Shown: positions 36,623 through 58,207 of the stretch, piece by piece
Layout: every line of letters begins with the position of its first letter
Position numbering within the stretch: position 1 is the first letter of the stretch
Position numbers and translations under genes: made by a program
Assembly (NCBI GenBank): GCA_043814605.1
Contig: JBDRJV010000035.1
Span: 10,275-74,274 of the forward strand
Origin: Candidatus Omnitrophota bacterium
GTDB lineage: Bacteria; Omnitrophota; Gorgyraeia; B26-G9
DNA length: 64,000 nt
Reading direction: 5' to 3'
Notes under the pieces: generated by a model
Database searches by the model: none
Seen by the model: the letters and a program-made list of their open reading frames with translations, nothing else
Told to the model about the DNA's origin: nothing

Positions 36623-38638
36623 TCAAGAATCAGTCTCTTCATCCTGATCTTGGGCTTGTCCTTCCTTATTACTGCCTTCTTCTTTGGGTAAGGTTTTTGA
36701 TACATAGGTACATTTCGGATATTTAGTACAGCCATAAAAACGCATGCCTCTTTTTGAGCAGCGGGCAACTATCTCTCCGTCACATCCAACATTGGGACAT
36801 TTAATCCCTAAAGATATTGACTTTGCAAACCGGCACTGCGGAAAACCCGAACAGCTTAAAAATTTACCCGCACGAGACCATTTAATTACCATGGGCCTGC
36901 CGCATTTCTGGCAAACTTCATCAGTTTCAATTACCTCTTTTTTTAGATTTTCCTGGGCAAATCCTATTTTTTTCTTAAAAGGGGTATAAAAATCTTTCAG
37001 CACAGAAACCCAATTAAGACTGCCTTCTTCAACTTTATCTAATTCTTCTTCCATCGCCGCGGTAAAGGCAATATTAATAATATTCGGGAAATATTCAACC
37101 AAAATATCACAGACTTTCATGCCTAATTCACTGCAAACTAAGTATCCCCTTTCGCGCCGAATATAATTACGGATGATTAAAGTATGAACAATCGGAGCAT
37201 ATGTACTGGGGCGGCCAATGCCTTTTTCTTCTAAAGCTTTAACCAAAGACGATTCTGAATAGCGCGCCGGAGGACGGGTAAAATGCTGGGTGGGAAGCAA
37301 TTTTATTAAATCAAGTTTTTCCCCTTCCTGTAATTGAGGCATTATTTTTTCTTTTTCATCTGTCTGCTCTTCATATACTTTCATAAATCCGTCAAAGACA
37401 AGGATTGATCCGCTGGCGGTAAATAAAAACCTTCCCGCAGTAATTTCAACACTGTTAGTACGATATAATGCCTGAGACATTTGACTCGCTAATGTCCTTT
37501 TCCAGATTAACTCGTATAATTTATACTGATCCTGAGTTAAATATTGTTGTATTCGTTCCGGAGTATGCAGAATAGATGTCGGCCTGATTGCTTCATGCGC
37601 TTCCTGTGCTGATTTTTTTGACTTATAAATATTCGGTTTAGCCGGCAGATAATCCGACCCAAAATTATTAACAATATATTTTCTTATTTGATCGAGTGCG
37701 GAATTAGCAATTTTTACTGAATCTGTACGCATATAGGTAATCAATCCAATCGGACCTTCTTCTCCTAATTCCAGCCCTTCGTATAACTGCTGGGCAATCA
37801 ACATTGTCTTACGCGTAGTAAATTTTAATTTATTAAAAGCATCTTGCTGCAATGTACTGGTAATAAAAGGAGCATAAGGACTGCGCTTTTTCTCTCTTTT
37901 CTTTAAAGCTGAAACAATATATTCTTGTTTCTTTAACTCTTTTATAATATTTTGCGATGATTCTTGATTTGCTAAATTTATTTTTTTTCCTTCAATTTTA
38001 ACAAGTTCCGCTTGAATAATTTCGGCACTTTCAATTTTTCTTTTAAGCTTTGCTTCAATTTTCCAATACTCTTCTGGTTTAAAATCCTGTATTTGCCTTT
38101 CTCTTTGGACAATAAGTTTTAAAGCTACAGACTGGACTCGCCCGGCACTTAATCCTTTGGCGACTTTTTTCCAAAGCAAAGGGCTTAAAAAATACCCCAC
38201 AATCCTATCTAACACTCTTCTTGCCTGCTGTGCATTTACTTTATTTACATCTACTTCTGCAGTATGTTCAAACGCTTCTTTTATTGCTTGCGGCGTAATT
38301 TCATGAAAAACAACACGTAAAAATTCCTTATTTTTCGTCTTATCCTGCAATTGTTCCCTCAAATGCCAGCTAATTGCTTCTCCTTCACGATCGTGGTCAG
38401 TTGCTAAATAAACAATTTCTGAATTCTTCACTTCTTTTTTTAACTGATTTAGAGTTTTTTTCTTACCGGGTATAACAACATAGGTAGGGGTAAAATCCTG
38501 GTCAACATCCACCCCGATTTTTCGGCGCGGCAAATCAATAATATGCCCCATAGAAGAATAAACAACAAAATCATTACCTAATATTCTGCCGATTGTTCTG
38601 GCTTTTGTCGGGGACTCAACAATAACAAGCTTTTTCAT
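36623..38638 (-). CDS. topA: DNA topoisomerase I
   Basis: Toprim N-terminus MKKLVIVESPTKARTIGRILG, an active-site Tyr region, and C-terminal C4 zinc ribbons (CQKCGRPM..C..C and CPNVGCDGE). Confidence 0.9.
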   Translation of the reverse strand: MKKLVIVESPTKARTIGRILGNDFVVYSSMGHIIDLPRRKIGVDVDQDFTPTYVVIPGKKKTLNQLKKEVKNSEIVYLATDHDREGEAISWHLREQLQDKTKNKEFLRVVFHEITPQAIKEAFEHTAEVDVNKVNAQQARRVLDRIVGYFLSPLLWKKVAKGLSAGRVQSVALKLIVQRERQIQDFKPEEYWKIEAKLKRKIESAEIIQAELVKIEGKKINLANQESSQNIIKELKKQEYIVSALKKREKKRSPYAPFITSTLQQDAFNKLKFTTRKTMLIAQQLYEGLELGEEGPIGLITYMRTDSVKIANSALDQIRKYIVNNFGSDYLPAKPNIYKSKKSAQEAHEAIRPTSILHTPERIQQYLTQDQYKLYELIWKRTLASQMSQALYRTNSVEITAGRFLFTASGSILVFDGFMKVYEEQTDEKEKIMPQLQEGEKLDLIKLLPTQHFTRPPARYSESSLVKALEEKGIGRPSTYAPIVHTLIIRNYIRRERGYLVCSELGMKVCDILVEYFPNIINIAFTAAMEEELDKVEEGSLNWVSVLKDFYTPFKKKIGFAQENLKKEVIETDEVCQKCGRPMVIKWSRAGKFLSCSGFPQCRFAKSISLGIKCPNVGCDGEIVARCSKRGMRFYGCTKYPKCTYVSKTLPKEEGSNKEGQAQDQDEETDS

Positions 38639-38882
38639 TAAATTCTATCCTCTTCTGTCTGCAATATTTTTAGTTATTTCTTAATTAAGGGGCATCCTCG
38701 AGCTTAATCTATCTTATTACTTTTTAATTAGTTATAAAATATTTAACAATCCAAATATGAATGCTCTATATTTTTCAGATATAATAACTTATTTAGTAGT
38801 TATAGTCAATAGATTAAAGGACTTTTAAGATTTATAATATTTTGATTATTTTCGTTAATAAGGAGTGTAAAAATCAAAAAAA

Positions 38883-41030
38883 CTATTGCCGTTTTATAAA
38901 ATTAATCTTGACTTCATTGCCTTCGGCTAGTTGAGTTGTAAATCCTCCCGGCTGGCCATTAACTTCAATCCGAATAATTCTTCCTTTTTGTTCGCTAAAA
39001 TTTATCGGCAAATACTCTAAAATTTGAGAAACAGTAGGTAAAATATTTTCTCCCGGGTAAGTATTAATTTCCGCCCGGTCAATAAGAAATTCATTTGGCT
39101 CTACTTTTTTGCCGTTCATAATTATTTTACCCGGGGGCCCGGCAATAGTGTGTTTTTGCCCGTTTAAATAAACGCTCACACAAGCTCCGCTAGAAGGAAT
39201 ATCCACAACATCTTTGACTCGGTAAAATACAGGTTTATCGCTTTTAAAATCAACCACATCTGCATTTACAAGGTTAGTATTTAAACTAGATTTTTGGCCG
39301 TTTACGAATAAAGCAAAATTGCTTTGTGAGAGAACCTTTGGTTCATTATTAACACTAATAACAATTTCTCTTTCTTCCAGATTGCTAGTATCAATACCCG
39401 CTATTGCCAAAACCTCTTTTACTTGAACAAAATTATTATATTTAATATCCGCCCGGTCAAATAATTGAGTATCAAGTTCCACAGGCAACCCATTCATCAA
39501 AATTTGAGGTTCTACTTTTACTTCCACCCCATTAACTAAAATAATTATTGAACTGGCGTCCACAACATCCTTAACTTTACCTTGCGCATCCTCACCGTCA
39601 CAGGCATCCAAAAAAGTAATTCTATCTTTGTTTTTAATTTTTGTTGTTAAATCTACTGCTTGATTATTTAATTCAATCTTAGCGGGTTTACCCATTTTCC
39701 CCTTTATAACTTTAAGTTTACCATTAACATTAACACAGAGCGCTCTGCCGATTTTCCCGTATAATTTCATTTCATCTACACCTGCGGCAACTAAAGCGCT
39801 TAAAACATCAATATTTTGGTGCATATCTAAGATATATACACGTTTATCATTAACATAAAGCTCCATAAACTTTAAGCCTTGGGAATCCGCGCTCATTAAA
39901 GAAATACCTAAAGGCGTCACCATGTCCGGACTATTAATTTTTCCGGTTTGGTCTTCAATCTTTTCAATCATTTGCGGCAGGCGAATACCAATATTTGTAC
40001 GCGGTAAATCAAAAGTACGGGAAAGTTCATCTTCTAAAAGCGGGGTTAAACTCCCGCCGCCGACTAAGACAATTGCATTCGGGGTTTTTTGATTATGTTT
40101 ATAAACACATTCGGCGATCGAATCGGCTAAAAGTCCGACACGTTTACGGATTTTTTCCATAATTTCTGCAGACTGCAATTCGTATTCCCGGCCTAATATA
40201 TCCTTAAATTTAACCTGGGGATGAGAAAGAATATTTTTCTTTACCGTTTCGGCTGTAGAAAAGTTCAAAATAAATTTTTCACAAATATGTTCGGTGATTT
40301 CATCGCCCGCTTCCGGCACCATACCGTAAGCAAAAACTGAACCATCACGGGTTAAAGCAATATCCGAAGTCCCGGCTCCAATATCCAATAATAATATATT
40401 TAAGTACCGGATATCTTCGGGGATAATGACATTTATTGCCGCAATGGGTTCAAGGGTTAAATTAACGATCTCTAGTTCTGCCCGATGTAAGACACTAAGC
40501 ATACTGTTAAAAACAACTCTCGGTAAAAAAGTTGCAATTACTTCTACGGATATTAAATTACCAAAATGTCCGACCAAACTGTTCATCATCGATTGATCAA
40601 GCTTATAGCCAATAACACTGTAGCCAACACAATAATAATCTCCCTGGCCAAAATCACAACGGGCATCTTCTAAAACACTGCTCACTGCCTCAAGCTCAAG
40701 ATTGCGTACTTGATCTTCACTGATTTCATCGTTTAAAGCAATCTTTTTTTCAATTTTAGCTTTTACCGTTTTTAAAGCCCGCCCGGCTACAGCAACTCCG
40801 ACATTTTTTAATTTTATATTCAGGCGCGATTCTAATCTTTGTTTAACTTCAATAACAACTCTTGCCACTTCTTTAATATTATGAATTTGTCCATCCAGCA
40901 TTGTCCGCAATTGATGTTCGATAACCTCTGTATCTAAAATTACCAGCTTATCCTCTGTTTTTTTGGCAACAATCCCCACAACTTTCCGGGTTCCAATATC
41001 TAAAGAAAAAACTATTTTTTTCTCTTCCAT
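38883..41030 (-). CDS. FtsA/PilM-family actin-like ATPase with a C-terminal extension of about 300 aa containing tandem VNG-motif repeats
   Basis: N-terminal FSLDIGTRKVVGIVA and a second phosphate loop LLLDIGAGTSDIAL. The C-terminus carries five roughly 60-aa segments each with (L/V)(V/N)NG and a D-x-I/V tail (ILVNGVEV, LFVNGQKS, VYLNGQKH, IIMNGKKV, IEVNGQPG). It is the last gene of the che operon. Confidence 0.5.
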   Translation of the reverse strand: MEEKKIVFSLDIGTRKVVGIVAKKTEDKLVILDTEVIEHQLRTMLDGQIHNIKEVARVVIEVKQRLESRLNIKLKNVGVAVAGRALKTVKAKIEKKIALNDEISEDQVRNLELEAVSSVLEDARCDFGQGDYYCVGYSVIGYKLDQSMMNSLVGHFGNLISVEVIATFLPRVVFNSMLSVLHRAELEIVNLTLEPIAAINVIIPEDIRYLNILLLDIGAGTSDIALTRDGSVFAYGMVPEAGDEITEHICEKFILNFSTAETVKKNILSHPQVKFKDILGREYELQSAEIMEKIRKRVGLLADSIAECVYKHNQKTPNAIVLVGGGSLTPLLEDELSRTFDLPRTNIGIRLPQMIEKIEDQTGKINSPDMVTPLGISLMSADSQGLKFMELYVNDKRVYILDMHQNIDVLSALVAAGVDEMKLYGKIGRALCVNVNGKLKVIKGKMGKPAKIELNNQAVDLTTKIKNKDRITFLDACDGEDAQGKVKDVVDASSIIILVNGVEVKVEPQILMNGLPVELDTQLFDRADIKYNNFVQVKEVLAIAGIDTSNLEEREIVISVNNEPKVLSQSNFALFVNGQKSSLNTNLVNADVVDFKSDKPVFYRVKDVVDIPSSGACVSVYLNGQKHTIAGPPGKIIMNGKKVEPNEFLIDRAEINTYPGENILPTVSQILEYLPINFSEQKGRIIRIEVNGQPGGFTTQLAEGNEVKINFIKRQ

Positions 41031-41049: not shown

Positions 41050-41658
41050 TTATACACCTAAAGACGAAAGCACAATTTTTAAAGCTTCTGGTTTTGGTAA
41101 AAACAATTGTGAACATTCTAATTTTGTGTTGGAAATTAAAAGCTCAACATCAATCATAAAAACTTCATCTGCAACTTGGCCGATTTCTGCTAAAATAGCG
41201 TCCAGCATAGCACCCAGCATATCACAAGCTATCGCCGGGACAGTGGCAATTGAATTTATACCCACAAGCTGGCTTAAAGCACTCAAATACGATCCGCAAA
41301 TAATCGACCCTACTTCTTTTAATGCGGAGGATGCGATTTCTGAATGCATATCAAGCTCTTTATTATCTAAAAGCTTGTCTACTAAAAATTCCGCACTTTC
41401 CGGAGCAAAAATTGTTAACATTGTGCCTTCCAACTCACGAATAACTTGTAAAAATACCACATAAACAATCTTATCCGCTCCCCCTAAAAATTCCGGCACT
41501 GCCTCTAATGGCAAGACTTTAACCGCCGGGACAATCATTTCTACAGAATCAGTAATTAATTGAGAAAGCGCTGTTGCTGCATTACCCGCTCCGATACTTC
41601 CCATTTCCCGTAACGCATCCATTTGAGAATCAGTTAAATCTGCCATTTTCCCCTCCAT
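41050..41658 (-). CDS. cheC: CheC-family chemotaxis phosphatase
   Basis: Two E..N..G.A-type repeats (LREMGSIGAGNAATAL, LKEVGSIICGSYLSAL). Confidence 0.8.
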   Translation of the reverse strand: MEGKMADLTDSQMDALREMGSIGAGNAATALSQLITDSVEMIVPAVKVLPLEAVPEFLGGADKIVYVVFLQVIRELEGTMLTIFAPESAEFLVDKLLDNKELDMHSEIASSALKEVGSIICGSYLSALSQLVGINSIATVPAIACDMLGAMLDAILAEIGQVADEVFMIDVELLISNTKLECSQLFLPKPEALKIVLSSLGV

Positions 41659-41731
41659 TTTAAAATACTAAAAATTAGTATTTTAAAACATTTCTCCCGC
41701 ACATAATTCATGTATTTTTCTTGTTGGTCAA

Positions 41732-43735
41732 TTATCCCACTAAAGTTCCTACATCCAGGATTAAAGCAACCTTTCCGTCCCCCAAGATTGTCGCCCCGGC
41801 AAAACCTTTAATACTTTTGAGCAGTTTACCTATTGACTTTATCACCACTTCCTGCTGTCCGATAACTGTATCAATTACCAGCCCAATTTTTTTTGCCGAA
41901 CGTTCGACAACAACAATGGATACTCCTTTATCTTTATTCTGGTCTTTTCCCGCTTCTTCTGAATCCTGCGTTCCTAAAATATGCCTTAAGCGGACTAAAG
42001 GTAATACTTCATTTCTCAAATTAATTACTTCAAGTTTCTCAATAAATTTTATTTTTTGCGTACTCACTTTAACTGTTTCCGCAATATTTGAAATCGGAAT
42101 TGCATATATTTCCTTGCCGACTTTCACCAGCATCGCCCGAATGATTGCGACCGTCAACGGTAATAATAGCTTGAAGCTGCTGCGCTTGCCTACTTCCGAC
42201 TCAAAACTCAGCATGCCGCCTAAAGATTCTACTTTCATTTTTACCACATCCATGCCCACACCGCGTCCAGAGATATCCGTAACCTTTGCCGCGGAACTAA
42301 AACCCGGCAATGTGATAAAATTTAATACTTCATGATCACTTAATTTACTGATTTCTTCCTTAGTAAAAAATTTTTTCTCCAGAGCAATTTTTCTTAAAAT
42401 TTTAGGGTCAATCCCCCGGCCATCATCAGAAACTTTAATTAATGCATATGTCCTTTGCCGGCATGCAGTCAAACTTATTACTCCGATCGGATTTTTACCT
42501 AAACTTTTTCGTTCACTCGGAGTTTCTATCCCGTGATCAATACTATTGCGTAAAAGATGCACTAAAGGGTCGGCAATTTCATCCAGGACAGTACGATCTA
42601 ACTCTATTTCCCCTCCACTAATTTCAAGATCAATTTGTTTATTTCTTTCCCGGGCCAAATCTCGAACCATACGCGGGAACCGGTCAAAAACCTGCGACAT
42701 AGGAATAAGCCGGGCTTGCATTACTTCATCCTGTAAATCACTGGTCAAGCGGTCAATTTGGGTAAGAACCTCATGTAACTCCGGAATTTCTTGTGCCTGG
42801 CCAATCTGCATTAAACGTATTTTGGAAATAACCAATTCTCCGACAAAATTCATCAGTTTATCCAGCCTTTGTGTACTCACACGAATGCTCTGAATTTTTT
42901 TAAACCCGGCAGATTGAATTGCGGTTTTTGAAATTGCTTGCTTTTGTTTTAGTTTTTCTTCTTGCATTTGTGATTGATCATTATCCGCTGCATCAATATT
43001 TTCCGTTTGACTGATCACAATACGTTCAACATCAATAATATTTTTCAAAACTGATTCAATTTTTTTATCAGTTTCAAAGGTAAGAAAGAGCAACGAAAAC
43101 ATCTTATCAAAATTATTTGACTCAAGGGCTTCAATCGTAGGAGCGGATTTAATTACCTCTCCCATCTTGTCCAAGATATTAAAAACCATAAAAACACGCA
43201 CAGACTTCAGCTGGCAATCATCTGTCAAATATATATCAATTGTGTAGACTTTAAATTTATGCTCAATTACAAGCTTATTTATGTTCTTTTTTTCTAATTC
43301 TGTTAAATCAATTATTGTATTTTTTTCGGTAAGCTGAGCATTTTCAGTTTGCCAATCAGAAGAAATGATCTCTTCCAATGCCTCAACCATCTGCTCCACG
43401 TTAACATTTAGATTTTTTTCTGTTTTAACTTCCTCAAGCAGCACTTCTAACATATCTAAACATTTAAATAAAATATCGATTATTTTAACTGTAACAATTT
43501 TTTTTTGCGTTCTAAAAATATCTAAGACATCTTCCATTTTATGGGTTAACTTCGTTAATGCTTCAAACCCCATTGTGGCGGACATCCCTTTCAGCGTATG
43601 GGCACTGCGAAAGATTTCATTTAAAATTTTTAAGTTATCCGGTTTTTTTTCCAGTTCTAAGATTGCATTATTAAGTAACTGTAAATGCTCTTCTGATTCT
43701 GTAATAAATAAATTTTTATATTGCTCTAACCCCAT
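41732..43735 (-). CDS. cheA: Chemotaxis histidine kinase CheA
   Basis: Hpt HTLKGMSATMGF, H-box/HATPase (GRGVGMDVV), and a C-terminal CheW-like domain. Confidence 0.95.
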   Translation of the reverse strand: MGLEQYKNLFITESEEHLQLLNNAILELEKKPDNLKILNEIFRSAHTLKGMSATMGFEALTKLTHKMEDVLDIFRTQKKIVTVKIIDILFKCLDMLEVLLEEVKTEKNLNVNVEQMVEALEEIISSDWQTENAQLTEKNTIIDLTELEKKNINKLVIEHKFKVYTIDIYLTDDCQLKSVRVFMVFNILDKMGEVIKSAPTIEALESNNFDKMFSLLFLTFETDKKIESVLKNIIDVERIVISQTENIDAADNDQSQMQEEKLKQKQAISKTAIQSAGFKKIQSIRVSTQRLDKLMNFVGELVISKIRLMQIGQAQEIPELHEVLTQIDRLTSDLQDEVMQARLIPMSQVFDRFPRMVRDLARERNKQIDLEISGGEIELDRTVLDEIADPLVHLLRNSIDHGIETPSERKSLGKNPIGVISLTACRQRTYALIKVSDDGRGIDPKILRKIALEKKFFTKEEISKLSDHEVLNFITLPGFSSAAKVTDISGRGVGMDVVKMKVESLGGMLSFESEVGKRSSFKLLLPLTVAIIRAMLVKVGKEIYAIPISNIAETVKVSTQKIKFIEKLEVINLRNEVLPLVRLRHILGTQDSEEAGKDQNKDKGVSIVVVERSAKKIGLVIDTVIGQQEVVIKSIGKLLKSIKGFAGATILGDGKVALILDVGTLVG

Positions 43736-43748
43736 AACATAAGTCCTT

Positions 43749-44795
43749 TTATGCTTTAGTACACTTTATTATCTCAAATCCCAGATGAGATAATGGCACT
43801 ATTTTATCAACAATCCCTTCTTTTATCGCTACACGCGGCATACCAAAAACTACGCAAGAATCCTTATCTTGAGCTAAAGTAATTCCGCCGGCATTTTTAA
43901 TGCTCCGCATTCCTTCTACCCCGTCTTGCCCCATTCCGGTAAGCAAAACTCCGATGCTTCTTTCTTTAAAATGCTTTGCCACAGAATCCATTAAAACGGT
44001 CACGGAAGGACGGATATTATTAACCTTAGGATCCTGATTTAAACGAATTATTGCCTGATAATTTTCCACATCCACTCTCATATGGTAATCTCCCGGCGCA
44101 ATATAACCGCATCCTGGTTGAATAATATCACCGTCTTCGGCTTCTTTAACTTTTATCTCCGAAGCCCAATTTATCCGGGAAGCAAATGAGCGTGTAAATT
44201 CAGGCGGCATATGCTGTACAATTAAAATTGCCGCCGGAATATCCCGCGGAAAATAAGAAACTATTTCTTTTATTGCCTTGGGTCCGCCGGTTGATGCGCC
44301 AATTACAACAATTTTTTTTAAATCTAATAATACCTTGTTGCCCGGATTAACTGTTCTTTGCTGTGTAATTTTACCCAGAACAGATTTAACCATTTTAATA
44401 TCAACCCGGCTGGCCAGTTTAATTTTTCTGATTATTTCTTCTGCTCTCTCCTTAAGATCACCAGAAATTTCACCGCCCGGTTTTGCCATCACTTCAATCG
44501 CACCTAATTCTAATGCCTTTATTGCATTTTTATTATTCGGCCCAACATTTGCACTAAGAATTACAACTGGTGTAGGTATTTCGTGCATAATATAAGTCAA
44601 CACGGTCAACCCATCAATATCCGGCATTTCAATATCTAATGTGATAACATCCGGTTTTAATTGAACAATTTTTTTGATTGCCTCAGCCCCGGTTTTTGCA
44701 TAATCAATAACTTCAATCTCTTCATCTGAATTGAGGATGTCGGTCACGGTTCTGCGGATTAATGCAGAATCATCCACAACAAGAACTCGGATCAT
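43749..44795 (-). CDS. cheB: Chemotaxis response regulator protein-glutamate methylesterase CheB
   Basis: REC domain MIRVLVVDDSALIRR and methylesterase GASTGGPKAI. ATGA overlap with cheD. Confidence 0.95.
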   Translation of the reverse strand: MIRVLVVDDSALIRRTVTDILNSDEEIEVIDYAKTGAEAIKKIVQLKPDVITLDIEMPDIDGLTVLTYIMHEIPTPVVILSANVGPNNKNAIKALELGAIEVMAKPGGEISGDLKERAEEIIRKIKLASRVDIKMVKSVLGKITQQRTVNPGNKVLLDLKKIVVIGASTGGPKAIKEIVSYFPRDIPAAILIVQHMPPEFTRSFASRINWASEIKVKEAEDGDIIQPGCGYIAPGDYHMRVDVENYQAIIRLNQDPKVNNIRPSVTVLMDSVAKHFKERSIGVLLTGMGQDGVEGMRSIKNAGGITLAQDKDSCVVFGMPRVAIKEGIVDKIVPLSHLGFEIIKCTKA

Positions 44796-45292
44796 ATAAT
44801 TCTTTCTCCGTGCGCAATAGTTCTAACGGTAACATCTCCTGTTTCGGTATTAAAATACATCGAACGGCCGTGATCACCCCCGGTATCTTCCGCAATCAAA
44901 CGAATATGTAATTGCTGCAATACTTCTTTCACTTTCGCCACATTGCGTTCTCCCACGTTAAAAACTTTATTCGTTGCAGGAAAATTAAACATATGGGCAC
45001 CGCCCATAATTTTAGCTCTTATTAATTTGCGGTTAGCGCCCATTTTCTCCATTTTATCAATCATGTCCGGTATTGCCGTATTGGCAAATTTAGCGCGGTT
45101 AGAATTATTTTGTACCAAATTACTATCCGGCAGCATGATATGGGATAAGCCGCCAATTTTTAATACAGCAAAATATAAAGCAATCCCTACGCAGGAACCG
45201 ATTCCTAAAGAGGAAAGAATCGCCGGTGCTTTGGCAACTTTCAGATCAGCCATTCCTACATGAATTTCTTGTTCAGTCATTTTCCACTCCAA
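44792..45292 (-). CDS. cheD: Chemoreceptor glutamine deamidase CheD
   Basis: LGIGSCVGIALY and GGAHMF motifs. Confidence 0.9.
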   Translation of the reverse strand: MEWKMTEQEIHVGMADLKVAKAPAILSSLGIGSCVGIALYFAVLKIGGLSHIMLPDSNLVQNNSNRAKFANTAIPDMIDKMEKMGANRKLIRAKIMGGAHMFNFPATNKVFNVGERNVAKVKEVLQQLHIRLIAEDTGGDHGRSMYFNTETGDVTVRTIAHGERII

Positions 45293-45893
45293 TTGCTTTT
45301 AAAATTGCTTCTAAACTTCCCGGGTTAGGTAATAAGAAAAAATGCCCTTTTACACTTTTCCCCTCTTCCATAAATTGAGAATCAATTAATAATGCATATT
45401 CTGTAACAGAAGAAAGTTCAATTAAAATATAATCAACTAAAGCTCCGGCCATATCAATCACAATCCCCGGAGCAGAAGGGACAAGTCCTAATTTAGTAAA
45501 TTGGGAAAGAGTATTTAAATAAGCCGCAGTTAGAATACTGCCGGCTTCTTTTATGGCGGATTCATCCAAGGGCGTAAAAATTCCTGTTGTATTTTTTTCC
45601 TGCGTCAGAATAGATGCGAGGATATGAGCATCCTCGCGGGGGAATAATAACATTATAAATCCCGGGGCATTACCAAAAACTTGAAACATAACCCCAACAA
45701 CTGAGACATCTGCACCGCCGACAATTTCCGGAACATTTCTCACTTTATCTAAATGAATTTGCGGAACATTCATTTGAATTTTTTTATTCATAAGCTGTGA
45801 AAGCGCCGTTGCGGCATTGCCCGCACAAATATTGGCGATTTCTTTTAAAATATCTTTTTGCTGGTCATTTAAAGTTTGTAATTTATTTAGCAA
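45273..45893 (-). CDS. CheC/CheX-family chemotaxis phosphatase (second paralogue)
   Basis: ILKEIANICAGNAATALSQL and IKEAGSILTAAYLNTLSQ repeats. Confidence 0.75.
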   Translation of the reverse strand: MLNKLQTLNDQQKDILKEIANICAGNAATALSQLMNKKIQMNVPQIHLDKVRNVPEIVGGADVSVVGVMFQVFGNAPGFIMLLFPREDAHILASILTQEKNTTGIFTPLDESAIKEAGSILTAAYLNTLSQFTKLGLVPSAPGIVIDMAGALVDYILIELSSVTEYALLIDSQFMEEGKSVKGHFFLLPNPGSLEAILKAIGVEND

Positions 45894-45957
45894 ATTCTAA
45901 CTCCCTTTAAAATAAATAAATTTTTAATTTTAAAATTATAAAATTATACATCCCGGA

Positions 45958-46332
45958 TTAGCTTTCTAAAACACGTTTTGCCGCTTCTAATACACGGGAA
46001 GGCTGAAAAGGTTTAGTCACAAAATCTTTTGCTCCTGCCTGAATCGCTTCCACAACTAAAGCATGCTGACCCATCGCACTAACCATAAGAATTTTTGCTC
46101 GGGAATCTTTCCCCATTATTTGCTTAACCGCTCCGATGCCATCAATATCGCCGACTTTGGGCATGACAATATCCATAGTGACCAATTCCGGATTAAGTTC
46201 CGTATATTTATCTACGGCTTCTTTCCCGTTTTCCGCTTCGCCGATAATTTCATATCCTTCTTTTTTCAGGATATCTCCGATCATTTTGCGCATGAACACA
46301 GCATCATCGACTACCAAAACTTTTACTCCCAT
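45958..46332 (-). CDS. cheY: Chemotaxis response regulator CheY
   Basis: 124-aa REC domain, KVLVVDDAVFMRKMIGDIL, with the conserved Asp and Lys positions. Confidence 0.9.
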   Translation of the reverse strand: MGVKVLVVDDAVFMRKMIGDILKKEGYEIIGEAENGKEAVDKYTELNPELVTMDIVMPKVGDIDGIGAVKQIMGKDSRAKILMVSAMGQHALVVEAIQAGAKDFVTKPFQPSRVLEAAKRVLES

Positions 46333-46355
46333 ATCTCCGCCCCTTTCTTTCTAAT

Positions 46356-46868
46356 TTAATTCTCTTTTTGTTCTGTATTTTGACCAATTATCTCAGCTTG
46401 TTTATGAATATGATGCAGCTCTTCTTTACTCAACACAGCATTTAAATCAAGCAGGATTAATAACCTGTCTTTTATTTTACCTACGCCTCTTAAATAACGC
46501 TCCTGCACTTCTGTATTAATCAACGAAGGAGTGTCTTCGATATCATCCGCGGAAAGTCTGATTACTTCAGATACAGAATCAACAATCATTCCCACCGTAC
46601 TATCGCCGACTTCGACGACCATGATCCGGGTTGAATCTGTTTTTCCCATTGAGGGTAAATCTAATCTGCAAGCCAAATCAATTACCGTAATAATCTGACC
46701 TCTTAAATTTACAACTCCCTCGATAAATTTCGGAGCTTTGGGCATGCGGGTAATTGCAATCATCTTTACGATCTCACGCACCTGGTTTATTTCTACGCCA
46801 AATTCTTCTTCGCCAATATTAAAGACAACCAGCTGTTTTTCTTGTGCAAATTTTTCTGCCCCAGCCAT
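46356..46868 (-). CDS. cheW: Chemotaxis coupling protein CheW
   Basis: EEEFGVEINQVREIV..GVVNLRGQIITVIDLACRL. Confidence 0.9.
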   Translation of the reverse strand: MAGAEKFAQEKQLVVFNIGEEEFGVEINQVREIVKMIAITRMPKAPKFIEGVVNLRGQIITVIDLACRLDLPSMGKTDSTRIMVVEVGDSTVGMIVDSVSEVIRLSADDIEDTPSLINTEVQERYLRGVGKIKDRLLILLDLNAVLSKEELHHIHKQAEIIGQNTEQKEN

Positions 46869-46942
46869 TTTATTGCCTCCTTCTAAAAAATGATGAATAT
46901 TAAAATCTTTACTTTCTGAGATTAATCAGTTTTATTCCCCGT

Positions 46943-48649
46943 TTAATCAGAAAGTTTAAACTTGCCGACTAAATCTTTAAGATCCGAAGCTAGTCTTGCT
47001 AATTCTTCTGCTGAGGCGGTTAATTCCTGCATGGAAGCTGTTTGTTCTTCAGATGAACTGGATGCTTCTTGTGCTGCTGTGGCTGATTCTTCCGCCACAA
47101 CCGCAACTTCATCAACCGCTTTAACGATTTCCTGAGAATTAGCTAATTGATTTTGTGTAGCCATTGTAATTTCATTAACCATCGTTGCAGATATTTTTGC
47201 AGCGTTAATAATATCAATAAGTGTATTTGACACCTGTTTAACAATCTCCCGCCCTTCGGTAACTTCTTTTGTGCCGGCTTCCATGGAAGCCACTGCTTTG
47301 GGTGTTTCCACCTGAATCCCTTTAATTAATATGCCGATTCTTCTGGCTGCTTCGGCTGAGCCTTCCGCTAATTTTCTCACCTCTTCGGCAACTACGGCAA
47401 ATCCTCTCCCCGCATCACCAGCCCGGGCAGCTTCAATTGCCGCATTAAGCGCTAAAAGATTAGTTTGATCCGCAATATTCGTAATTGTCTCTGTAATTTG
47501 TCCGATTTGCTGTGTTTTTTCCCCTAAGGTAAGCACTACTGTGGCTGCATTCATAACCGTATCCGTAATTTTATTCATTGTTTCTACTGCCGCAGTTGTT
47601 GATTTTCCGCCGGTTTTAGCTTGCTCTAAAGACCTTTCTGAGGATTTTGTCGCGGCTTGCGCATTTTCCGCAACACTGCGGACTGAATCTGCCATATCCT
47701 CCATAAGACTAGATGTATCTTCGACGCGCTTTGCCTGGGTACTAACTCCGTTAGCAATCTTTTGTATGGTGGATGAAATTTCTTCGGTGGAAGCATTCAT
47801 TTCTTTTGTGGAACTTGAAATTTCTTCGGCAAAACTAGAAACTTTTCCGGATAAATCCTGAATATGTTTGACCATCTTATGCAAATTTTTAATTATAGAA
47901 TTAAAAACACCCGCTAATATCCCAATCTCATCTTGAGATATTATGGGAATCCCTTTTGTTAAATCTCCCTCTGCCGCCGGCATTGCCGTTTTAATTAAAA
48001 TATTAATTGGTTTAATCACCACTTTACGCAGTAAAATTATGAGCAATATCATAATTGCAGTAAAATTAAAAAGCAAAATTAAAACATTTTGAATTTTAAC
48101 CGCACCCAGTGATTTTTCAAAATTATCCCGGGAAAAATCTATCCCCAAAACGCCTAAAATTTTTAAAGTATCTGCGTGGCATTTTTGACAATCTTTACTG
48201 TTCTTAACAGGAACATACGTTCTAAGAATTTTTTTTCCCTTATCCACAATTTTAGTCAGCATTATACCCTGATTTTTTAAATTAATATGTTGTTTCGCTT
48301 CTTCTAGTATTTGATTAATTTCAATTTTTTGATTTAACTTGCTTTTATCTGTAGTTCTTTTTATCAGTCCGGCATGATTAGCGAGAAAAATAGATTGAAT
48401 TTCTGGTTCTTTTGCTAAAAAACTAAAAACTTGTTCTACCTCTTCCTGTTTACCAGAAAGCATGGGAAAATAAATCGCATTTAAACCGCTGGTGGTAAGA
48501 GTACGGGTAAGTTTTATTTCTAAATCAGAAAATATCCTGCTTTGTGAGTTAATATTATAAACAGTAGTCATGCCCATGACCAGAAATAAACCAATCCCCA
48601 TCCAAAGCAGAATTTTAAATTCTAGATTATTTGGTAAAAATTTAAACAC
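46943..48649 (-). CDS. Methyl-accepting chemotaxis protein with a periplasmic domain carrying a CXXCH haem-c-binding motif (DcrA-like)
   Basis: TM1 at residues 13-33. A roughly 150-aa periplasmic domain contains CQKCH. TM2, then a methyl-accepting signalling domain with a conserved hairpin ([41 protein letters not shown]). Confidence 0.85.
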
Positions 48650-49103: not shown

Positions 49104-50468
49104 TTAGAACTTTACGCCAATTTCAGCCATGATCTGAGTAGCAGTTTCATCAACCTTTTTGCCGCTATTCGCCCCAGAATCTATTGTTCCATAATAACTT
49201 CCTGGGAAAAACCAGGCTAAACTCAGGCCAAGGTTAACATCTTCTGTATATGCATATTTTGCATATAAATCAAGTTCCTCCCCAGCATCATCATCTTTTT
49301 GTAAACCAGTGGTGTTTGCGCCTACAGCTGGTGCAGTTATTTCTTCGGCTAATTTATACATCCAAAACTCTGCGCCCACCGTAAGTCTGTCCATAGGAAC
49401 TAAACTGCCGGTTAAAGCAATTGCATTAATATTTGTGTTTGGATCATAAATTATACCGTTGGTCTGATCTTCAAAACCAGCTTGCCATCCTTCAAAATCA
49501 CCCGTTGTTTTGGTTGTATCCTGACCAGAACGATATACCCATTTTACACCAACTTTTGGTGAATATTCATTCTCAATTGCATAATCTAGAGCCAGGTCAT
49601 AAGCATAAGCTTCCAGATCTCTGGTTGCTGCTGCTGTTTTCATATAATCACCAAACTGAGTGGCTAAGCCAACTTTTAAGTTCAAATTTTCTTTTGGCTG
49701 TAGTGTAATACATGTTGCTAATACATATTGGTCTAAAGCTTTTGTACTTGTTAGAGTTGGTCCAGTACCTACTCCTGCGCCTGGTGAATTATAATGAGAA
49801 ATTGATAAATAGGTATCAATTACTGTATTCATATCATCTTCTAATTTATAGATTGTATCAATGGTGTATAATTCAACATCATCAAATGCAGTAGAGGCAG
49901 TTTCCAGAGCTTTTGCTGTTCCAATGCCGATAAATAGAGGGTCATAATCTAAAATACCTACGATCCCATCAAATTCTTTATGCATGGAATAATCTGTACC
50001 CAGGACTGCTTCTCCGGTTCTTGAACCATCACCAATAACTAAGCCATCCGCAACCTTAACCGGCATTCTACCCATTTTAACTGTTAAAGGAGAATAAAGC
50101 ATTTCCTTTAAAGTAATGTAAGAAGCAACCATTAGGATATTAGTTCCTGCTGCGCCGTTTCCGCTCCAGTCTCTTTCATTGCCCATTTGTAAAGTTGCTG
50201 ATACATTATCAGTTAAATCTGCGTCTACGCCTAATTTTGCAATTGTGTTGTACCAATCACGAGATCCTGTGTCCAAAAATGGAGTTAAAGCTCCACCATT
50301 GGTTAAATCTGCTCCGCCGCCTGAACCAGTTGTTGCATAATTATCGCGGACAAAACCACGGATTGTAATTTCTCCGCTAACTTTAATATTTTGTACTTCA
50401 GCAAAAGCTGGTAAGCTCAAAACTGCAACCATGCTTAGTGCTAAAATCATAATCAACATTCGCTTCAT
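49104..50468 (-). CDS. Outer-membrane porin-like beta-barrel protein
   Basis: Signal peptide MKRMLIMILALSMVAVLSLPAFA, Gly/Thr/Asp-rich alternating strands, C-terminal IGVKF. It appears somewhat higher in GC than its neighbours, by eye. Confidence 0.5.
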   Translation of the reverse strand: MKRMLIMILALSMVAVLSLPAFAEVQNIKVSGEITIRGFVRDNYATTGSGGGADLTNGGALTPFLDTGSRDWYNTIAKLGVDADLTDNVSATLQMGNERDWSGNGAAGTNILMVASYITLKEMLYSPLTVKMGRMPVKVADGLVIGDGSRTGEAVLGTDYSMHKEFDGIVGILDYDPLFIGIGTAKALETASTAFDDVELYTIDTIYKLEDDMNTVIDTYLSISHYNSPGAGVGTGPTLTSTKALDQYVLATCITLQPKENLNLKVGLATQFGDYMKTAAATRDLEAYAYDLALDYAIENEYSPKVGVKWVYRSGQDTTKTTGDFEGWQAGFEDQTNGIIYDPNTNINAIALTGSLVPMDRLTVGAEFWMYKLAEEITAPAVGANTTGLQKDDDAGEELDLYAKYAYTEDVNLGLSLAWFFPGSYYGTIDSGANSGKKVDETATQIMAEIGVKF

Positions 50469-50771: not shown

Positions 50772-51254
50772 TTAGGCTGAATATATTATTGCTTTGTGTA
50801 ATTTTATTTCCTTTTTAACAAGTGCGATAATTTCCGTGATCTTTTTCTTTAAACAAGCAGATAATTCTAATCCTAAGCCTGTTTTTTCCGGAACAATACC
50901 AAAAATAATAGTCTGTGGTAATTTTCCTTGTTTTCGGCAAAATTCAACTGCTTCCATAAACCCAATATTATGTAAGGATATTGATATATCTTGTTTAATA
51001 TCAATACTTTGCGGACTAAATTTGTATATTGTGCCTGGTTTGTCCTTTGTTTTTACAGCATCGATCACAATTAATTTATGAGAAGCCTGTATAACCGGTA
51101 AAAGGTCAAACCCAGCAGTTCCGCCATCAATAATTTCTACATTATCTGGTATTTTTTTTTGCTTTAATTTATTAATCACATGAATCCCAATTCCTTCGTC
51201 CTGAAGCAATAAATTACCTATACCTAGAATTGTGATTTTCTTATAATTTTTCAT
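50772..51254 (-). CDS. [NiFe] hydrogenase maturation endopeptidase (HyaD/HybD/HoxM family)
   Basis: ITILGIGNLLLQDEGIGIHV..DGGTAGFDLL. Confidence 0.85.
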   Translation of the reverse strand: MKNYKKITILGIGNLLLQDEGIGIHVINKLKQKKIPDNVEIIDGGTAGFDLLPVIQASHKLIVIDAVKTKDKPGTIYKFSPQSIDIKQDISISLHNIGFMEAVEFCRKQGKLPQTIIFGIVPEKTGLGLELSACLKKKITEIIALVKKEIKLHKAIIYSA

Positions 51255-51317
51255 TTTTTAAATTTTCTTAACATTAATAAATTCAAATTGTTATAATATT
51301 TAGGAAATTTAAAATAG

Positions 51318-52730
51318 TTAGCAGACTCGGAATTGTTTCATTTTTCCGCTAGGATTAATTAAGTGTACTGCACAAGCTAAACAAGGGTCAAACGAACGCA
51401 CAACACGCACTACTTCAATCGGATTATCAGGATCTGCAACTGGCGTATTAATCAATGCCTGTTCCATTGGGCCTAATTGCATTTTATGATCACGCGGTGA
51501 GCAATTCCAGGTTGTAGGAACAATACATTGATAATTACTGATTTTACTGTTTTCAATTTTTATCCAATGTCCTAGTGCACCGCGGGGAGCTTCGGTTAAC
51601 CCAATACCCTGTGATGACTTAGGTATTTTATAACCATTAAATACCGGTTTGCCGGGAATAAGCTCAGATAGCCAATTTTCCATAGCCTCAATTATTTTTT
51701 TTGTTTCCAAAGCCCGGGCAATATGCCGGTCAATTAAAGATACCCCCTGATGATAATCGCCATTAATCCACATCCGGGCCAAAGGCCCGACTTCGTGGCT
51801 AAGACCATCATAACGCGGCGCTTTTACCCAGGAATAAGCCTTATCTTTATTTATATCCGGCGCAGTATCTGCCGCCTGAACGGGTCTGAGTTTTTTAGCG
51901 CTTTTATACCAGGAAAAAGTCACATCTTCAGTAATTTTATCCGGATTAAATCCTTGCTCATTATTATCAACAAACCGGCCGGGTTTAAAAAACAAATTTT
52001 TTCTTTGATCATCTTGAGCAAAAACTCCGTAGCTTAAAAAATTATTATATCCTGAGCCAATGGTTTTATAATCTTTATATACCTTAGCCAATAACATAAC
52101 ATCCGGCAGATAAACTTGATTAATAAATTGTTTTAACTGCCTTATTCTCCATAAACTCGCCGCAATTTTATCTACACTCACACTCTGGGAAACACCGCCT
52201 GGGGTAATTGACTGGGCCATGGGCATTTTCCCTGACCACACTGCAGCCAGTTCATGTGCCTTAGCACGCATATCTAAAGCTTGTAAATAATGCTCCATAA
52301 GCGTGGCATTATCTGCATTATTAAACAAATAATCACCTTTATAACGCGGCACAAAAGGAGCAATTTTATCTCCCTGGACATAATCAAGAATAGCTAAATG
52401 ATAAAAATGTAAAATATGAGATTGAATAAAATTACTGCCTAAGATTAAGTTTCTGATTATTCGGCCATTTGCCGGCGGAATAACTTTAAACGCAGAATCA
52501 AGATTCAGCGCTGCAGCTTGAGCATGGCTCACCGGGCAAACACCGCAAATCCGCTGGGTAATCATCTGCGCATCACGCGGATCACGGCCCTTTAAAATCA
52601 CCTCTATGCCCCGCCATAATGTACCCATCACCCGCGCATCAATCACTTTAGAATTATCAACTTCAACCTCGATTTTTAAATGCCCTTCAATACGTGTAAT
52701 CGGATCAATCACTATTTTTTGTTTAGCCAT
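51318..52730 (-). CDS. [NiFe] hydrogenase large subunit
   Basis: N-terminal RICGVCPVSHAQAAAL (RxCGxCxxxH) and C-terminal DPCLACAVH (DPCxxCxxH) Ni-binding motifs. At 470 aa it is unusually short for a Tat-exported group-1-type enzyme. Confidence 0.9.
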   Translation of the reverse strand: MAKQKIVIDPITRIEGHLKIEVEVDNSKVIDARVMGTLWRGIEVILKGRDPRDAQMITQRICGVCPVSHAQAAALNLDSAFKVIPPANGRIIRNLILGSNFIQSHILHFYHLAILDYVQGDKIAPFVPRYKGDYLFNNADNATLMEHYLQALDMRAKAHELAAVWSGKMPMAQSITPGGVSQSVSVDKIAASLWRIRQLKQFINQVYLPDVMLLAKVYKDYKTIGSGYNNFLSYGVFAQDDQRKNLFFKPGRFVDNNEQGFNPDKITEDVTFSWYKSAKKLRPVQAADTAPDINKDKAYSWVKAPRYDGLSHEVGPLARMWINGDYHQGVSLIDRHIARALETKKIIEAMENWLSELIPGKPVFNGYKIPKSSQGIGLTEAPRGALGHWIKIENSKISNYQCIVPTTWNCSPRDHKMQLGPMEQALINTPVADPDNPIEVVRVVRSFDPCLACAVHLINPSGKMKQFRVC

Positions 52731-52772
52731 AATTTTTAAAGCTCCAAGCTACATGCGGCAAGTTACAGATTT

Positions 52773-53714
52773 TTAGGTTTTAGCTTTAGGAATTTTATGT
52801 TTTGGTAATTTTGCGTATAAAGAAACTCCGTTATCCGGAAACTCTGCTTCACAGCAAGCAATACATCCTGTACCTGAACCAATACACCAATTAACTCCGT
52901 TATTCCAGCGCCGTAAACTACAATCAGCATAAGCTACTGGCCCTTTACAGCCTAATTCCGCTAAACACCCGGGCTGTCCATATTCTGAAGCAAATTCTGC
53001 ATTAGCAAAAAATGAATAATTTGTGCAATTTTCATGAATGTTTTCTTTATAGAACATTGCCGGCCGACCATCCTTTAACAATTCTGGTATACCAAAATTA
53101 AGCACATGCACTATGGTTCCCACAACCCAATCCGGATGCGTCGGACAGCCAGAAATATTAATTACCGGTTTATCTATCTTGCCGCTAACCTCAGCTAAAC
53201 TTTTGACCTGCGTTGGATTAGGTTTTGCTGAGGGAATACCGCCGAATGCAGCGCAAGTGCCTACCGCCATTAGCACTCCTGCATCCGGGACTAAATTCTG
53301 GACTGCTTCAACTAAAGTAATTGGCTGGCCGTTACGTTCGCCAATCGTACAATAAAGACCATTTTCAGCTGTAGGCACTCCGCCTTCAAGAATCAAAATA
53401 AATTTACCTTTAAATTTTTGTGCAGTCTCCTGAATATGGTCAAAAGCAGTCTTTCCTGTACCGGCCATAAGCGTAGGGTGATATTCTAAATTAATAATCT
53501 GAATTAAAACTTCGGCAATCTTAGGGTGAACAGTATTGAGTAAAGAAATAGAACAGCCATTACAACCTGCGCCTTGGAGCCAAATTACCGCAGGTTTATC
53601 AACTCCACTGCCGGTTAATGCTTTGACAATAACCGGATTATAGGAACTGGTTATGGCTGCTGCAGCAGCGGATGAGCTAAAAATTTTTAAAAACTGTCTG
53701 CGGGTAAATTTCAT
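52773..53714 (-). CDS. [NiFe] hydrogenase small subunit, Tat-exported
   Basis: Twin-arginine signal MKFTRRQFLKIFSSSAAAAA and an FeS Cys cluster (GCNGCS, GCP.HP). The start is assigned to the second Met, with GGAG upstream. Confidence 0.9.
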   Translation of the reverse strand: MKFTRRQFLKIFSSSAAAAAITSSYNPVIVKALTGSGVDKPAVIWLQGAGCNGCSISLLNTVHPKIAEVLIQIINLEYHPTLMAGTGKTAFDHIQETAQKFKGKFILILEGGVPTAENGLYCTIGERNGQPITLVEAVQNLVPDAGVLMAVGTCAAFGGIPSAKPNPTQVKSLAEVSGKIDKPVINISGCPTHPDWVVGTIVHVLNFGIPELLKDGRPAMFYKENIHENCTNYSFFANAEFASEYGQPGCLAELGCKGPVAYADCSLRRWNNGVNWCIGSGTGCIACCEAEFPDNGVSLYAKLPKHKIPKAKT

Positions 53715-53782
53715 TTTCCCTTTATTTTCTCCCTGCGTTAAAACAATCAGGCCCTTCAAAAAATATCTTTAAGATGTTTCTT

Positions 53783-56120: not shown

Positions 56121-56573
56121 CTATACACTAAAAAAATCTACTTCGCTAACAACCCTTATCCCCTGATTTTTTAAAAGCGCGGTTAAAATCCCATTGCCGT
56201 TTATTAATCTCTGCTGAAAAGTTCCGTCATATATTTTTCCTACGCCGCAAGCCGCACTCTTAGATTTTAATATTGCCAGGCTGATTTTATTTTCTTGTGC
56301 TAAGTTTTTCGCTTTTTCCGCTCCGTCGAGCAGCTGCGCGGTTACATCCTGGCCTAATTTATTAATCACCTTTGCCTGGTTATTAATAACATCTTCTCCG
56401 CTGCCGCCGATAATCTCACAAGGCGGCCGGGGCACAGGCAATCCGCCCATAACTTCAGGACAGACTAAGATTACTTTGCCTTTTTCTTTTAACTTTACGA
56501 TTAAAGCCAGGGGCTGAGAGAGTCCATCATAACGGCATTTTTCTCCGGCTAAACAAGCACTGGCTAAAATCAT
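56121..56573 (-). CDS. DUF523 (TudS-like) family protein
   Basis: MILASACLAGEKCRYDG N-terminus, characteristic of DUF523. Confidence 0.6.
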   Translation of the reverse strand: MILASACLAGEKCRYDGLSQPLALIVKLKEKGKVILVCPEVMGGLPVPRPPCEIIGGSGEDVINNQAKVINKLGQDVTAQLLDGAEKAKNLAQENKISLAILKSKSAACGVGKIYDGTFQQRLINGNGILTALLKNQGIRVVSEVDFFSV

Positions 56574-58201: not shown

Positions 58202-58207
58202 ATTTTT

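Follow-up and report, generated by a model that had tools for sequence, protein, structure and literature searches.

Few signalling pathways are charted as well as chemotaxis, and the accessory proteins known from it form a short, well-catalogued list (CheC, CheD, CheV, CheX, CheZ and ParC/ParP). ATPases of the ParA type encoded within che operons, i.e., ParC in Vibrio and PpfA in Rhodobacter, position the chemoreceptor arrays of these bacteria, a role that has been established experimentally. Here we describe an ATPase gene of another fold in a che operon of a Candidatus Omnitrophota bacterium (assembly GCA_043814605.1). The stretch of DNA analysed, which we have referred to as the window, comprises 64,000 nucleotides of contig JBDRJV010000035.1 (positions 10,275 to 74,274 of the forward strand). 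The gene codes for an FtsA-like protein in which an ATPase head of the actin fold is followed by a tail of five repeated units, and it is the last che-linked gene of the che unit. We found that the window copy belongs to a monophyletic clade of genes embedded in che operons of the CheC/CheD type in Omnitrophota, allied uncultured bacteria and the archaeon Methanolobus. The gene and the elements of its head are the following, AF2 standing for AlphaFold2 and pLDDT for the predicted local distance difference test:

38883..41030, (-): FtsA-like ATPase gene with a five-unit repeat tail, 715 aa plus stop codon, ATG start (open reading frame (ORF) listing and translation)
39876..41030, (-): actin fold of the FtsA type, complete and with the FtsA-specific subdomain, residues 1-385 (TIGR01174 alignment, Foldseek, AF2 with pLDDT > 90)
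40974..41000, (-): phosphate-1 motif DIGTRKVVG, residues 11-19
40356..40388, (-): phosphate-2 motif LDIGAGTSDIA, residues 215-225
40050..40061, (-): adenosine motif GGGS, residues 324-327

A preliminary description of the gene had read its N-terminal part as an actin-fold ATPase close to FtsA and PilM, with the two phosphate motifs that we have located at the positions given above, and the structural comparison agreed. An AF2 model built from a 122-sequence alignment of the family had a pLDDT of 93.3 and a predicted template-modelling score (pTM) of 0.75, while a single-sequence prediction reached a pLDDT of only 33.7. In the Foldseek comparison of the alignment-based model with the PDB, FtsA came on top (7q6i, 7q6g, 7q6d, 1e4g and 3wqt), with template-modelling (TM) scores of 0.77-0.84 over approximately 390-399 columns; the chains 7q6i, 7q6g and 7q6d scored between 0.82 and 0.84 (0.83 for the likeness to FtsA) over ca. 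397 aligned columns. PilM, EutJ and MreB came next. The top 50 matches of the whole model against PDB and BFVD were all of the actin/Hsp70 fold and matched the ATPase. A sequence search of the PDB with the full-length protein also gave FtsA as the best match (E 9e-12), its matches being confined to the N-terminal ATPase region, and no solved structure covers the repeat tail. The Pfam matches of the head were FtsA, PilM_2 and MreB_Mbl. Ten residues were invariant in 122 family members (G13, T14, E194, D216, G218, T221, D223, A225, G324 and G325), and D11 was kept in at least 90% of them. The head is therefore of the FtsA-type fold and very probably retains ATP binding.

However, the protein is no genuine FtsA or PilM, as the preliminary description had also implied. 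TIGR01174, the ftsA equivalog model, aligned residues 7-376 to positions 2-368 of its 371 and gave 106.9 bits against a cut-off of 175.85; PRK09472 gave 52.3 bits against 409, and the PilM model TIGR01175 gave 41.8 bits against 133, so that none of the three cut-offs was reached. The amphipathic helix of FtsA is missing, and the gene has neither dcw nor pilNOPQ neighbours.

The tail occupies residues 386-715 and is a genuine tandem repeat of five units of ca. 60 aa each. Its parts, with the scores of a hidden Markov model (HMM) of the unit, are:

39828..39869, (-): orphan NG hairpin ELYVNDKRVYIL, residues 388-401, between the ATPase and unit 1 (AF2 strands 388-393 and 396-401)
39591..39821, (-): unit 1, residues 404-480 (unit HMM 405-474, 53 bits), the most conserved unit
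39432..39590, (-): unit 2, residues 481-533 (unit HMM 481-532, 45 bits; HHalign self-matches)
39237..39431, (-): unit 3, residues 534-598 (unit HMM 534-597, 50 bits)
39045..39236, (-): unit 4, residues 599-662 (unit HMM 602-659, 64 bits)
38886..39044, (-): unit 5, residues 663-715 (unit HMM 682-709; Pfam ThiS 665-709)

The motif [ILVMFY]x[ILVMFY]N[GND] is present in 11 copies along the 330 aa of the tail and in one copy in the 385 aa of the head; shuffled tails contained 0.81 +/- 0.86 copies, with a maximum of five in 5000. In the comparison of the tail profile with itself by HHalign, off-diagonal matches appeared at shifts of about 61 residues (E 1e-34, 245 columns), 120 (E 1e-29), 183 (E 8.5e-18) and 236 (E 1.2e-6). 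BLASTP of the single sequence against itself gave no off-diagonal match; the units are just ca. 18-25% identical and the repeat is therefore visible at the profile level only. The preliminary description had already counted five modules of about 60 aa, and this count held with both HHalign and the unit HMM, but its register did not. Because each unit carries two NG hairpins, the five segments that it listed differ from the five units: unit 1 (residues 404-480) had been missed and unit 4 had been split in two (VYLNGQKHT and IIMNGKKVE ... LIDRAEI).

In the AF2 model each unit contains one short helix and five strands, with a pLDDT of ca. 90. The order is a short helix (consensus V-x-D-v-L), an NG-turn hairpin (i-x-V-x-V-N-G), a second NG hairpin (I-x-v-N-G-x-x-v-x-l-d) and a last strand (d-G-D-x-I-x-f). 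Unit 1 reads VNVNGKLKV / IELNNQAV ... DRITF and has a G-rich signature (G428, N436, G444, G447 and N455). Unit 5 is without the first hairpin and carries a conserved FTT-x-L motif (signature F-T-T-x-L ... G), and the chain ends in a beta-strand (...EVKINFIKRQ). The orphan hairpin ahead of unit 1 aligns, in the HHalign self-alignment, with the second NG hairpin of a unit. With this hairpin, and without the first one of unit 5, the tail as a whole adds up to five hairpins, five helices and five b3-b4-b5 segments. As modelled, such a count would be compatible with units that pack locally as well as with an interdigitated rod in which hairpins are swapped. A pTM of 0.75 for a multi-domain chain of 715 residues suggests that the arrangement may be fairly rigid.

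With regard to the nature of the units, a likeness to the beta-grasp domains of ThiS and MoaD had been noticed from the start, and the profile searches were in agreement with it. Unit 5 scored 26.0 bits with Pfam ThiS (residues 665-709, model positions 22-69 of 76), above the gathering score of 22.5. We also scanned 56 units from diverse members against Pfam. ThiS was found 16 times at E <= 0.1 (the best match at E 4.4e-6), Ub-Mut7C nine, TGS nine, ThiS-like six and SAMP2 once, each of these five being a beta-grasp family of the ubiquitin-like kind; there were also three matches to S4 and two to FHA. The profile of the 56 units matched in the PDB SAMP2 (5lda), 1ryj, PF1061 (1rws), MoaD (1vjk), ThiS (2k5p), RnfH and the TGS domain of RelA, at E values between 0.003 and 0.5; matches of the S4 type appeared as well and were weaker. 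The matches are clustered in the helix and in the C-terminal half of each unit. Two other identities were rejected. An S4-domain or FHA-like unit rests on weak matches to the common 'NG ... GD-x-I' tail and clashes with the mildly acidic character of the repeat tail (median pI 5.3). The SAF/beta-clip fold, offered in the preliminary description as the alternative to ThiS/MoaD, found no supporting match and nothing in the searches favours it.

The position of the gene at the end of a chemotaxis operon had been described correctly, as had its coordinates. The gene is on the minus strand, and eight genes confirmed by Pfam as che genes or as a methyl-accepting chemotaxis protein (MCP) gene precede it. 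The unit and its borders are, in the direction of transcription:

49082-49045, (-): strong terminator-like hairpin of the gene preceding the che unit, upstream of the MCP gene
48838-48810, (-): promoter-like site before the MCP gene, 11/12 match
46943-48649, (-): MCP gene (Pfam)
46356-46868, (-): cheW (Pfam)
45958-46332, (-): cheY (Pfam)
45273-45893, (-): cheC, first of two in the operon (Pfam)
44792-45292, (-): cheD (Pfam)
43749-44795, (-): cheB (Pfam)
41732-43735, (-): cheA, domains P1-P5 (Pfam)
41050..41658, (-): cheC-like gene directly upstream of the FtsA-like gene, with a 19-nt gap; a conserved neighbour in the che-linked clade (Pfam CheC)
38639..38882, (-): spacer of 244 nt between the FtsA-like gene and topA
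38809-38781, (-): promoter-like site TTGACT-17-TATTAT for topA, in the 244-nt spacer
36623-38638: topA, downstream of the FtsA-like gene

All the genes from the MCP to the FtsA-like gene are on the minus strand, in the order MCP-cheW-cheY-cheC-cheD-cheB-cheA-cheC-FtsA-like gene, with gaps of -20 to +74 nt. The start of the unit is marked by the strong hairpin and the promoter-like site ahead of the MCP gene. The FtsA-like gene starts 19 nt past the stop codon of the preceding cheC and has an AAGGA ribosome-binding site 9 nt 5' of its ATG. We found no terminator-like hairpin in the 244-nt spacer before topA, and no cheR in the che operon of the window (41050-48649); in ten related loci cheR is located directly downstream of the FtsA-like gene, the place held by topA in the window. 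NCBI holds an identical protein under the name 'cell division FtsA domain-containing protein [Candidatus Omnitrophota bacterium]'. Searches with PADLOC and PHROGs had no meaningful result, and a defence or phage role was dropped for this reason.

The association with chemotaxis extends well beyond the window. We have scored the che neighbours of 163 loci, taken from two genome scans, by tblastn with the Che proteins of the window. The fraction of informative loci in which the gene is adjacent to che genes, by identity to the window protein, was:

Identity of at least 55%: 5 of 5 informative loci
Identity of 42-55%: 9 of 11 informative loci
Identity of 39-42%: 5 of 11 informative loci
Identity below 39%: 4 of 129 informative loci, all four in the che clade

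Linkage to che genes reaches down to ca. 38% identity. In a midpoint-rooted neighbour-joining tree of 156 members all 23 che-linked genes fell within a single clade of 25, and the remaining two members of that clade lie on contigs too short to judge their neighbours. The co-occurrence with che operons that the preliminary description had proposed to look for was thus found in one clade (23/25) and not in the Bacillota majority of the family. Several gene orders are found within the clade (X being the FtsA-like gene):

Window, L003, L017 and L085: CheW-CheY-(CheC)-CheD-CheB-CheA-CheC-X-TopA
L005, L007, L087 and L089: CheY-CheC-CheA-CheC-X-CheR-CheY-CheD-CheB-CheC-CheW-MCP
L002 and L008: CheW-CheR-CheY-CheB-CheA-X-CheC-CheC-CheD-CheY
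Complete Methanolobus chromosome: CheY-CheB-CheA-CheC-X-CheR-CheC-CheC-CheD

The constant feature of the che-linked loci is that the FtsA-like gene comes straight after cheA or after cheA-cheC, and the order CheA-CheC-X is that of most of these loci. In Methanolobus the gaps are only ca. 5 nt between cheC and the FtsA-like gene and ca. 3 nt between the latter and cheR, and neither CheW nor CheF was seen within 10 kb. The che operon of this archaeon (L011, 14775-18573) also contains four CheC-like genes and four ORFs of 407, 173, 208 and 201 aa without a clear Pfam match. In L002, a metagenome-assembled genome (MAG) labelled as Elusimicrobia, a gene for a PilM-like protein of 586 aa, pilO and a secretin gene (1-4583) are located directly upstream of the che operon with the FtsA-like gene.

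Outside the che clade, neighbour clustering gave no recurring operon partner, only synteny at the level of the order, which is uninformative (aroA/ccpA/ytx genes, ctsR-clpC, HD-GYP, HtrA and Nth). In Bacilli the family gene is found between aroA/ccpA and ytxJ-ytxH-ytxG-murC, as a monocistronic insert in Robertmurraya (L083) and 14 other loci; in Bacillus subtilis this position is presumably without the family gene. In Syntrophomonadaceae it adjoins ctsR-mcsA-mcsB-clpC. No dcw context was recognised among the 163 loci.

The family is large. The genome scans gave at least 578 loci, and the full-length homologues, in the hundreds and ca. 712 aa long, are labelled 'FtsA', 'rod shape-determining protein', 'ATPase' or 'PilM'. 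A search of 1.84 billion representative proteins with the tail only gave 561 clusters (50% identity) at E <= 1e-3, nearly all of 700-730 aa and with the tail beginning at ca. residue 385 and running as a single stretch of ca. 325 residues, down to 24% identity. On the sequences gathered the architecture is fixed, and the tail-only search did not find the tail on other heads. Very many loci belong to the Bacillota (Brevibacillus, Lysinibacillus, Niallia, Robertmurraya, Terribacillus, Syntrophomonas, Heliobacterium, Desulfosporosinus, Dehalobacter, Pelosinus, Pectinatus, Selenomonadaceae, Halanaerobiales and Ruminiclostridium). Those outside this phylum come from Omnitrophota, a MAG of the Planctomycetes-Verrucomicrobia-Chlamydiae (PVC) group, MAGs labelled as Planctomycetales and Methylomirabilis, Thermotogae and Methanolobus. 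NCBIfam contains no model dedicated to the family. A full-text search of an incomplete library gave no paper on this architecture or on any family member, in line with the preliminary description, which had held that the protein is not a described chemotaxis component. The folds are known; their combination, the family and the association with che genes appear to be undescribed.

Conservation is uneven along the protein. The mean frequency of the top residue was 0.56 in the ATPase, 0.51 in unit 1, 0.38 in unit 2, 0.35 in units 3 and 4, and 0.42 in unit 5. The number of units also varies, from three to five per protein across the family. The short variants (582-673 aa) have the compositions U1-U4-U5, U1-U2-U5 or U1-U2-x-U5, always retaining units 1 and 5 while middle units are lost or replaced; over the whole family there are one to three middle units. 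Such three- or four-unit variants are P0155, P0176 and P0236 (582-592 aa) and P0179-P0263 (648-673 aa); longer forms with N- or C-terminal extensions also occur (P0252 has 871 aa). Units 1 and 5 being constant while the middle ones vary and are the least conserved, a design of head, stalk and tip can be proposed. This pattern of sequence conservation suggests that units 1 and 5 may have specific roles and that units 2-4 may set a distance.

In the reading that we favour, and to which we would give a probability of roughly 0.4, the protein of the che clade would be an accessory part of the chemotaxis machinery and would serve the signalling complex of CheA and CheC as an ATP-driven scaffold or adaptor. 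The ATPase head would self-associate or switch conformation with ATP, like FtsA and PilM; the repeat tail would be a multivalent protein-protein adaptor that keeps a partner-binding tip at a set distance; and the protein as a whole would tether, organise or position the complex of CheA, CheC and receptors. As modelled, a fold of the FtsA/PilM type is suggestive of ATP-dependent self-association and of the docking of peptides. In the che-linked clade the gene has cheA and cheC as its constant neighbours. The motors of bacteria and archaea are unrelated, and a single clade of the FtsA-like gene serves the che operons of both; the partner is therefore more likely to belong to the Che core than to be a motor protein. 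A more detailed version can be put forward only tentatively, and we regard it as doubtful in its entirety: an ATP-dependent filament or scaffold of the actin fold with a beta-grasp rod docking on CheA/CheC, which would arrange or position the receptor arrays or, with the CheC-like neighbour, act as a switch adaptor of type IV filament motors.

Several observations weigh against this scaffold or adaptor. Approximately 85% of the sampled loci, mainly of Bacillota, have a stand-alone gene without che neighbours or a conserved operon, and for this reason the ancestral function of the family need not be chemotaxis. The annotation of the whole window contains no flagellar or pilus genes, so that it does not name the motor of this che system. 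The beta-grasp assignment is made up of many weak sequence matches, mainly to the C-terminal half of the unit, and similar weak matches to the S4 and FHA tails exist. In the AF2 model the helix comes before the first hairpin in each unit, and the canonical beta-grasp, a mixed sheet of 4-5 strands that grasps one helix, has the order b1-b2-helix-b3-b4-b5. Finally, we infer polymerisation, ATP hydrolysis and binding to Che proteins from the fold and the gene order.

The stand-alone genes of the Bacillota majority, in their unrelated neighbourhoods, could also be taken to indicate a housekeeping protein of the envelope, of division or of morphogenesis, without any role in chemotaxis, that was captured once by a che operon and co-inherited since. 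As the che-linked genes form one clade, a single capture event could explain the linkage. However, the linkage has outlasted extensive rearrangement of the operon (there are at least three gene orders, and in many the gene is in mid-operon), has persisted after its transfer to an archaeon, where the gaps are of 3-5 nt, and is maintained at identities down to ca. 38%. Passive hitch-hiking is seldom so tight for so long, and we consider such a capture unlikely. Distinctly unlikely, in our opinion, is an output adaptor that would work together with the CheC-like neighbour, coupling phosphorylated CheY (CheY-P) to a type IV filament machine through its cytoplasmic platform in the manner of PilM, i.e., to pili in the Omnitrophota-like bacteria and to the archaellum in Methanolobus. 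PilM was the second-best structural match and Pfam PilM_2 was matched too, the neighbour found most constantly is CheC, a CheF-like gene was not seen in Methanolobus within 10 kb, and motility of the type IV filament kind is plausible for both groups of hosts. The location of the L002 che operon directly downstream of a pilM/N-pilO-secretin cluster is suggestive in the same sense. However, in the window and in most loci the gene has no pilus or archaellum genes next to it, and the PilM cut-off was missed (41.8 against 133 bits). An ATP-driven regulator or chaperone would fit the superfamily that the head has in common with Hsp70, its intact ATPase motifs and the proximity of cheA, cheC and cheD; the head would clamp or remodel one of these three Che proteins, and the tail would bind the substrate as in Hsp70. 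But the nearest folds are FtsA and PilM, with the FtsA-type subdomain, and not Hsp70; the tail is unlike the Hsp70 substrate-binding domain and, being repetitive and variable in length, has the look of a spacer or adaptor rather than of a substrate clamp. This makes a regulator of that kind quite improbable.

Two explanations remain. That the protein is the FtsA (or PilM) of the organism itself with a lineage-specific extension agrees with the FtsA fold and with the labels 'cell division protein FtsA', 'rod shape-determining protein' and 'pilus assembly protein PilM'. Both family cut-offs were missed, though, the membrane-targeting helix and the dcw or pil neighbours are lacking, a separate PilM is encoded in the same L002 locus, and the tail is constant across the 561 clusters. 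A conventional FtsA or PilM is thus effectively excluded by the scores, the context, the missing helix and the fixed tail. That the tail units are working sulfur carriers or protein modifiers like ThiS, MoaD or ubiquitin could be argued from the Pfam ThiS match above the gathering score and from the SAMP2 and MoaD matches. Against this, a C-terminal GG was found in 0 of 122 family members and at no unit boundary; the units are internal and fused to one another; and no E1-like, ThiF, MoeB, thiamine or molybdopterin genes were found within ca. 10 kb on either side. Because the GG termini are missing, a carrier of the ThiS type is effectively refuted. We conclude, from sequence comparison, that the units are probably adaptor domains related to ThiS/MoaD rather than carriers of sulfur or modifiers.

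If the more detailed version were true, with a filament or scaffold whose beta-grasp rod docks on CheA/CheC, chemotaxis would have its first dedicated cytoskeletal element of the actin family, common to bacteria and an archaeon, and a family of more than 500 clusters, present in many cultivable Bacillota, would gain a first functional handle. A conserved ATPase of the actin/FtsA family in che operons of several uncultured phyla and a methanogen would add a new class of component to the pathway, and one would have to ask how, in these lineages, arrays are assembled or connected with motors. Apart from chemotaxis, the analysis defines a large family that is mislabelled in databases as 'FtsA', 'MreB' or 'PilM' and that occurs in genera open to cultivation and genetic work (Brevibacillus, Lysinibacillus, Niallia, Pelosinus and Syntrophomonas).

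Other features of the window were noticed along the way, all on the minus strand:

272-4076, (-): cluster of hemB, a radical SAM/SPASM gene and two genes for NirDL/AhbAB-like siroheme decarboxylases, which looks like the alternative haem biosynthesis route
11578-14676, (-): large ORF (1032 aa) that matches nothing in Pfam at E <= 1e-5
14945-19473, (-): B12-binding radical SAM genes, three paralogues in tandem (467, 496 and 506 aa)
19478-21076, (-): flavin amine-oxidase-like gene after the three B12-binding radical SAM genes
50772-53759, (-): NiFe hydrogenase set, upstream of a porin-like gene (49104-50468, Alginate_exp) and of the che operon
52773-53759, (-): small subunit of the NiFe hydrogenase, confirmed by Pfam
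51318-52730, (-): putative ORF of the NiFe large subunit, from its translation only
50772-51254, (-): maturation-protease-like ORF, likewise from its translation only
56570-58231, (-): ORF of 369 aa without a Pfam match, beside a DUF4416 gene

Compared with the systems already known, the head is closest to FtsA (TIGR01174, PF14450; 7q6d, 7q6g, 7q6i, 1e4g and 4a2a), with which it has in common the fold and the layout of subdomains over residues 1-385 as well as the phosphate-1, phosphate-2 and adenosine motifs, at ca. 20-22% identity. However, the C-terminal amphipathic membrane helix of FtsA is replaced by the repeat tail of 330 aa, and the gene is found in a che operon or alone, never beside ftsQ or ftsZ in the loci seen. 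The second structural match is PilM (TIGR01175, PF11104; 2ych and 5eou), with TM scores of 0.66-0.79 and the Pfam PilM_2 match; like PilM, the FtsA-like protein would need a partner for its attachment to the membrane or to a complex. It differs in that no pilN, pilO, pilP or pilQ is located beside the gene in the window, in that the L002 pil cluster has a PilM of its own, and in the predicted beta-grasp tail, which PilM does not have.

The units of the tail have a likeness, seen in sequence, to ThiS, MoaD and SAMP (PF02597, PF14451, PF14453 and PF21965; 5lda, 1vjk, 2k5p and 1rws), i.e., a helix followed by 'I-x-V-N-G-x-x-V ... l-x-D-G-D-x-I-x-f'. In contrast to these proteins, they are without a GG terminus or a partner E1 and form a tandem fusion of five copies; in the AF2 model, strand 3 is separated from the helix by an additional NG hairpin, and the helix is placed ahead of the first hairpin. 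Ubiquitin-like domains in series as protein-binding modules are also found in the doublecortin DCX tandem and in polyubiquitin-like proteins, covered by a survey of the beta-grasp fold (PMC1949818), but no specific sequence relationship to the FtsA-like tail is detectable. In targeted reading, the survey made no mention of a fusion to an FtsA/actin-fold ATPase or of a link to chemotaxis, and the architecture of FtsA-like ATPase and repeat tail was not mentioned either in a review of archaeal taxis.

The closest functional analogue may be the pair ParC and PpfA, with no homology implied. In both cases the gene of an ATPase of a cytoskeletal class is found within a che operon, beside the core signalling genes. 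However, ParC and PpfA have the P-loop fold of ParA/MinD and the FtsA-like protein has the actin fold, without sequence similarity between them, and whereas their role is known from experiment, that of the FtsA-like protein would follow from gene order.

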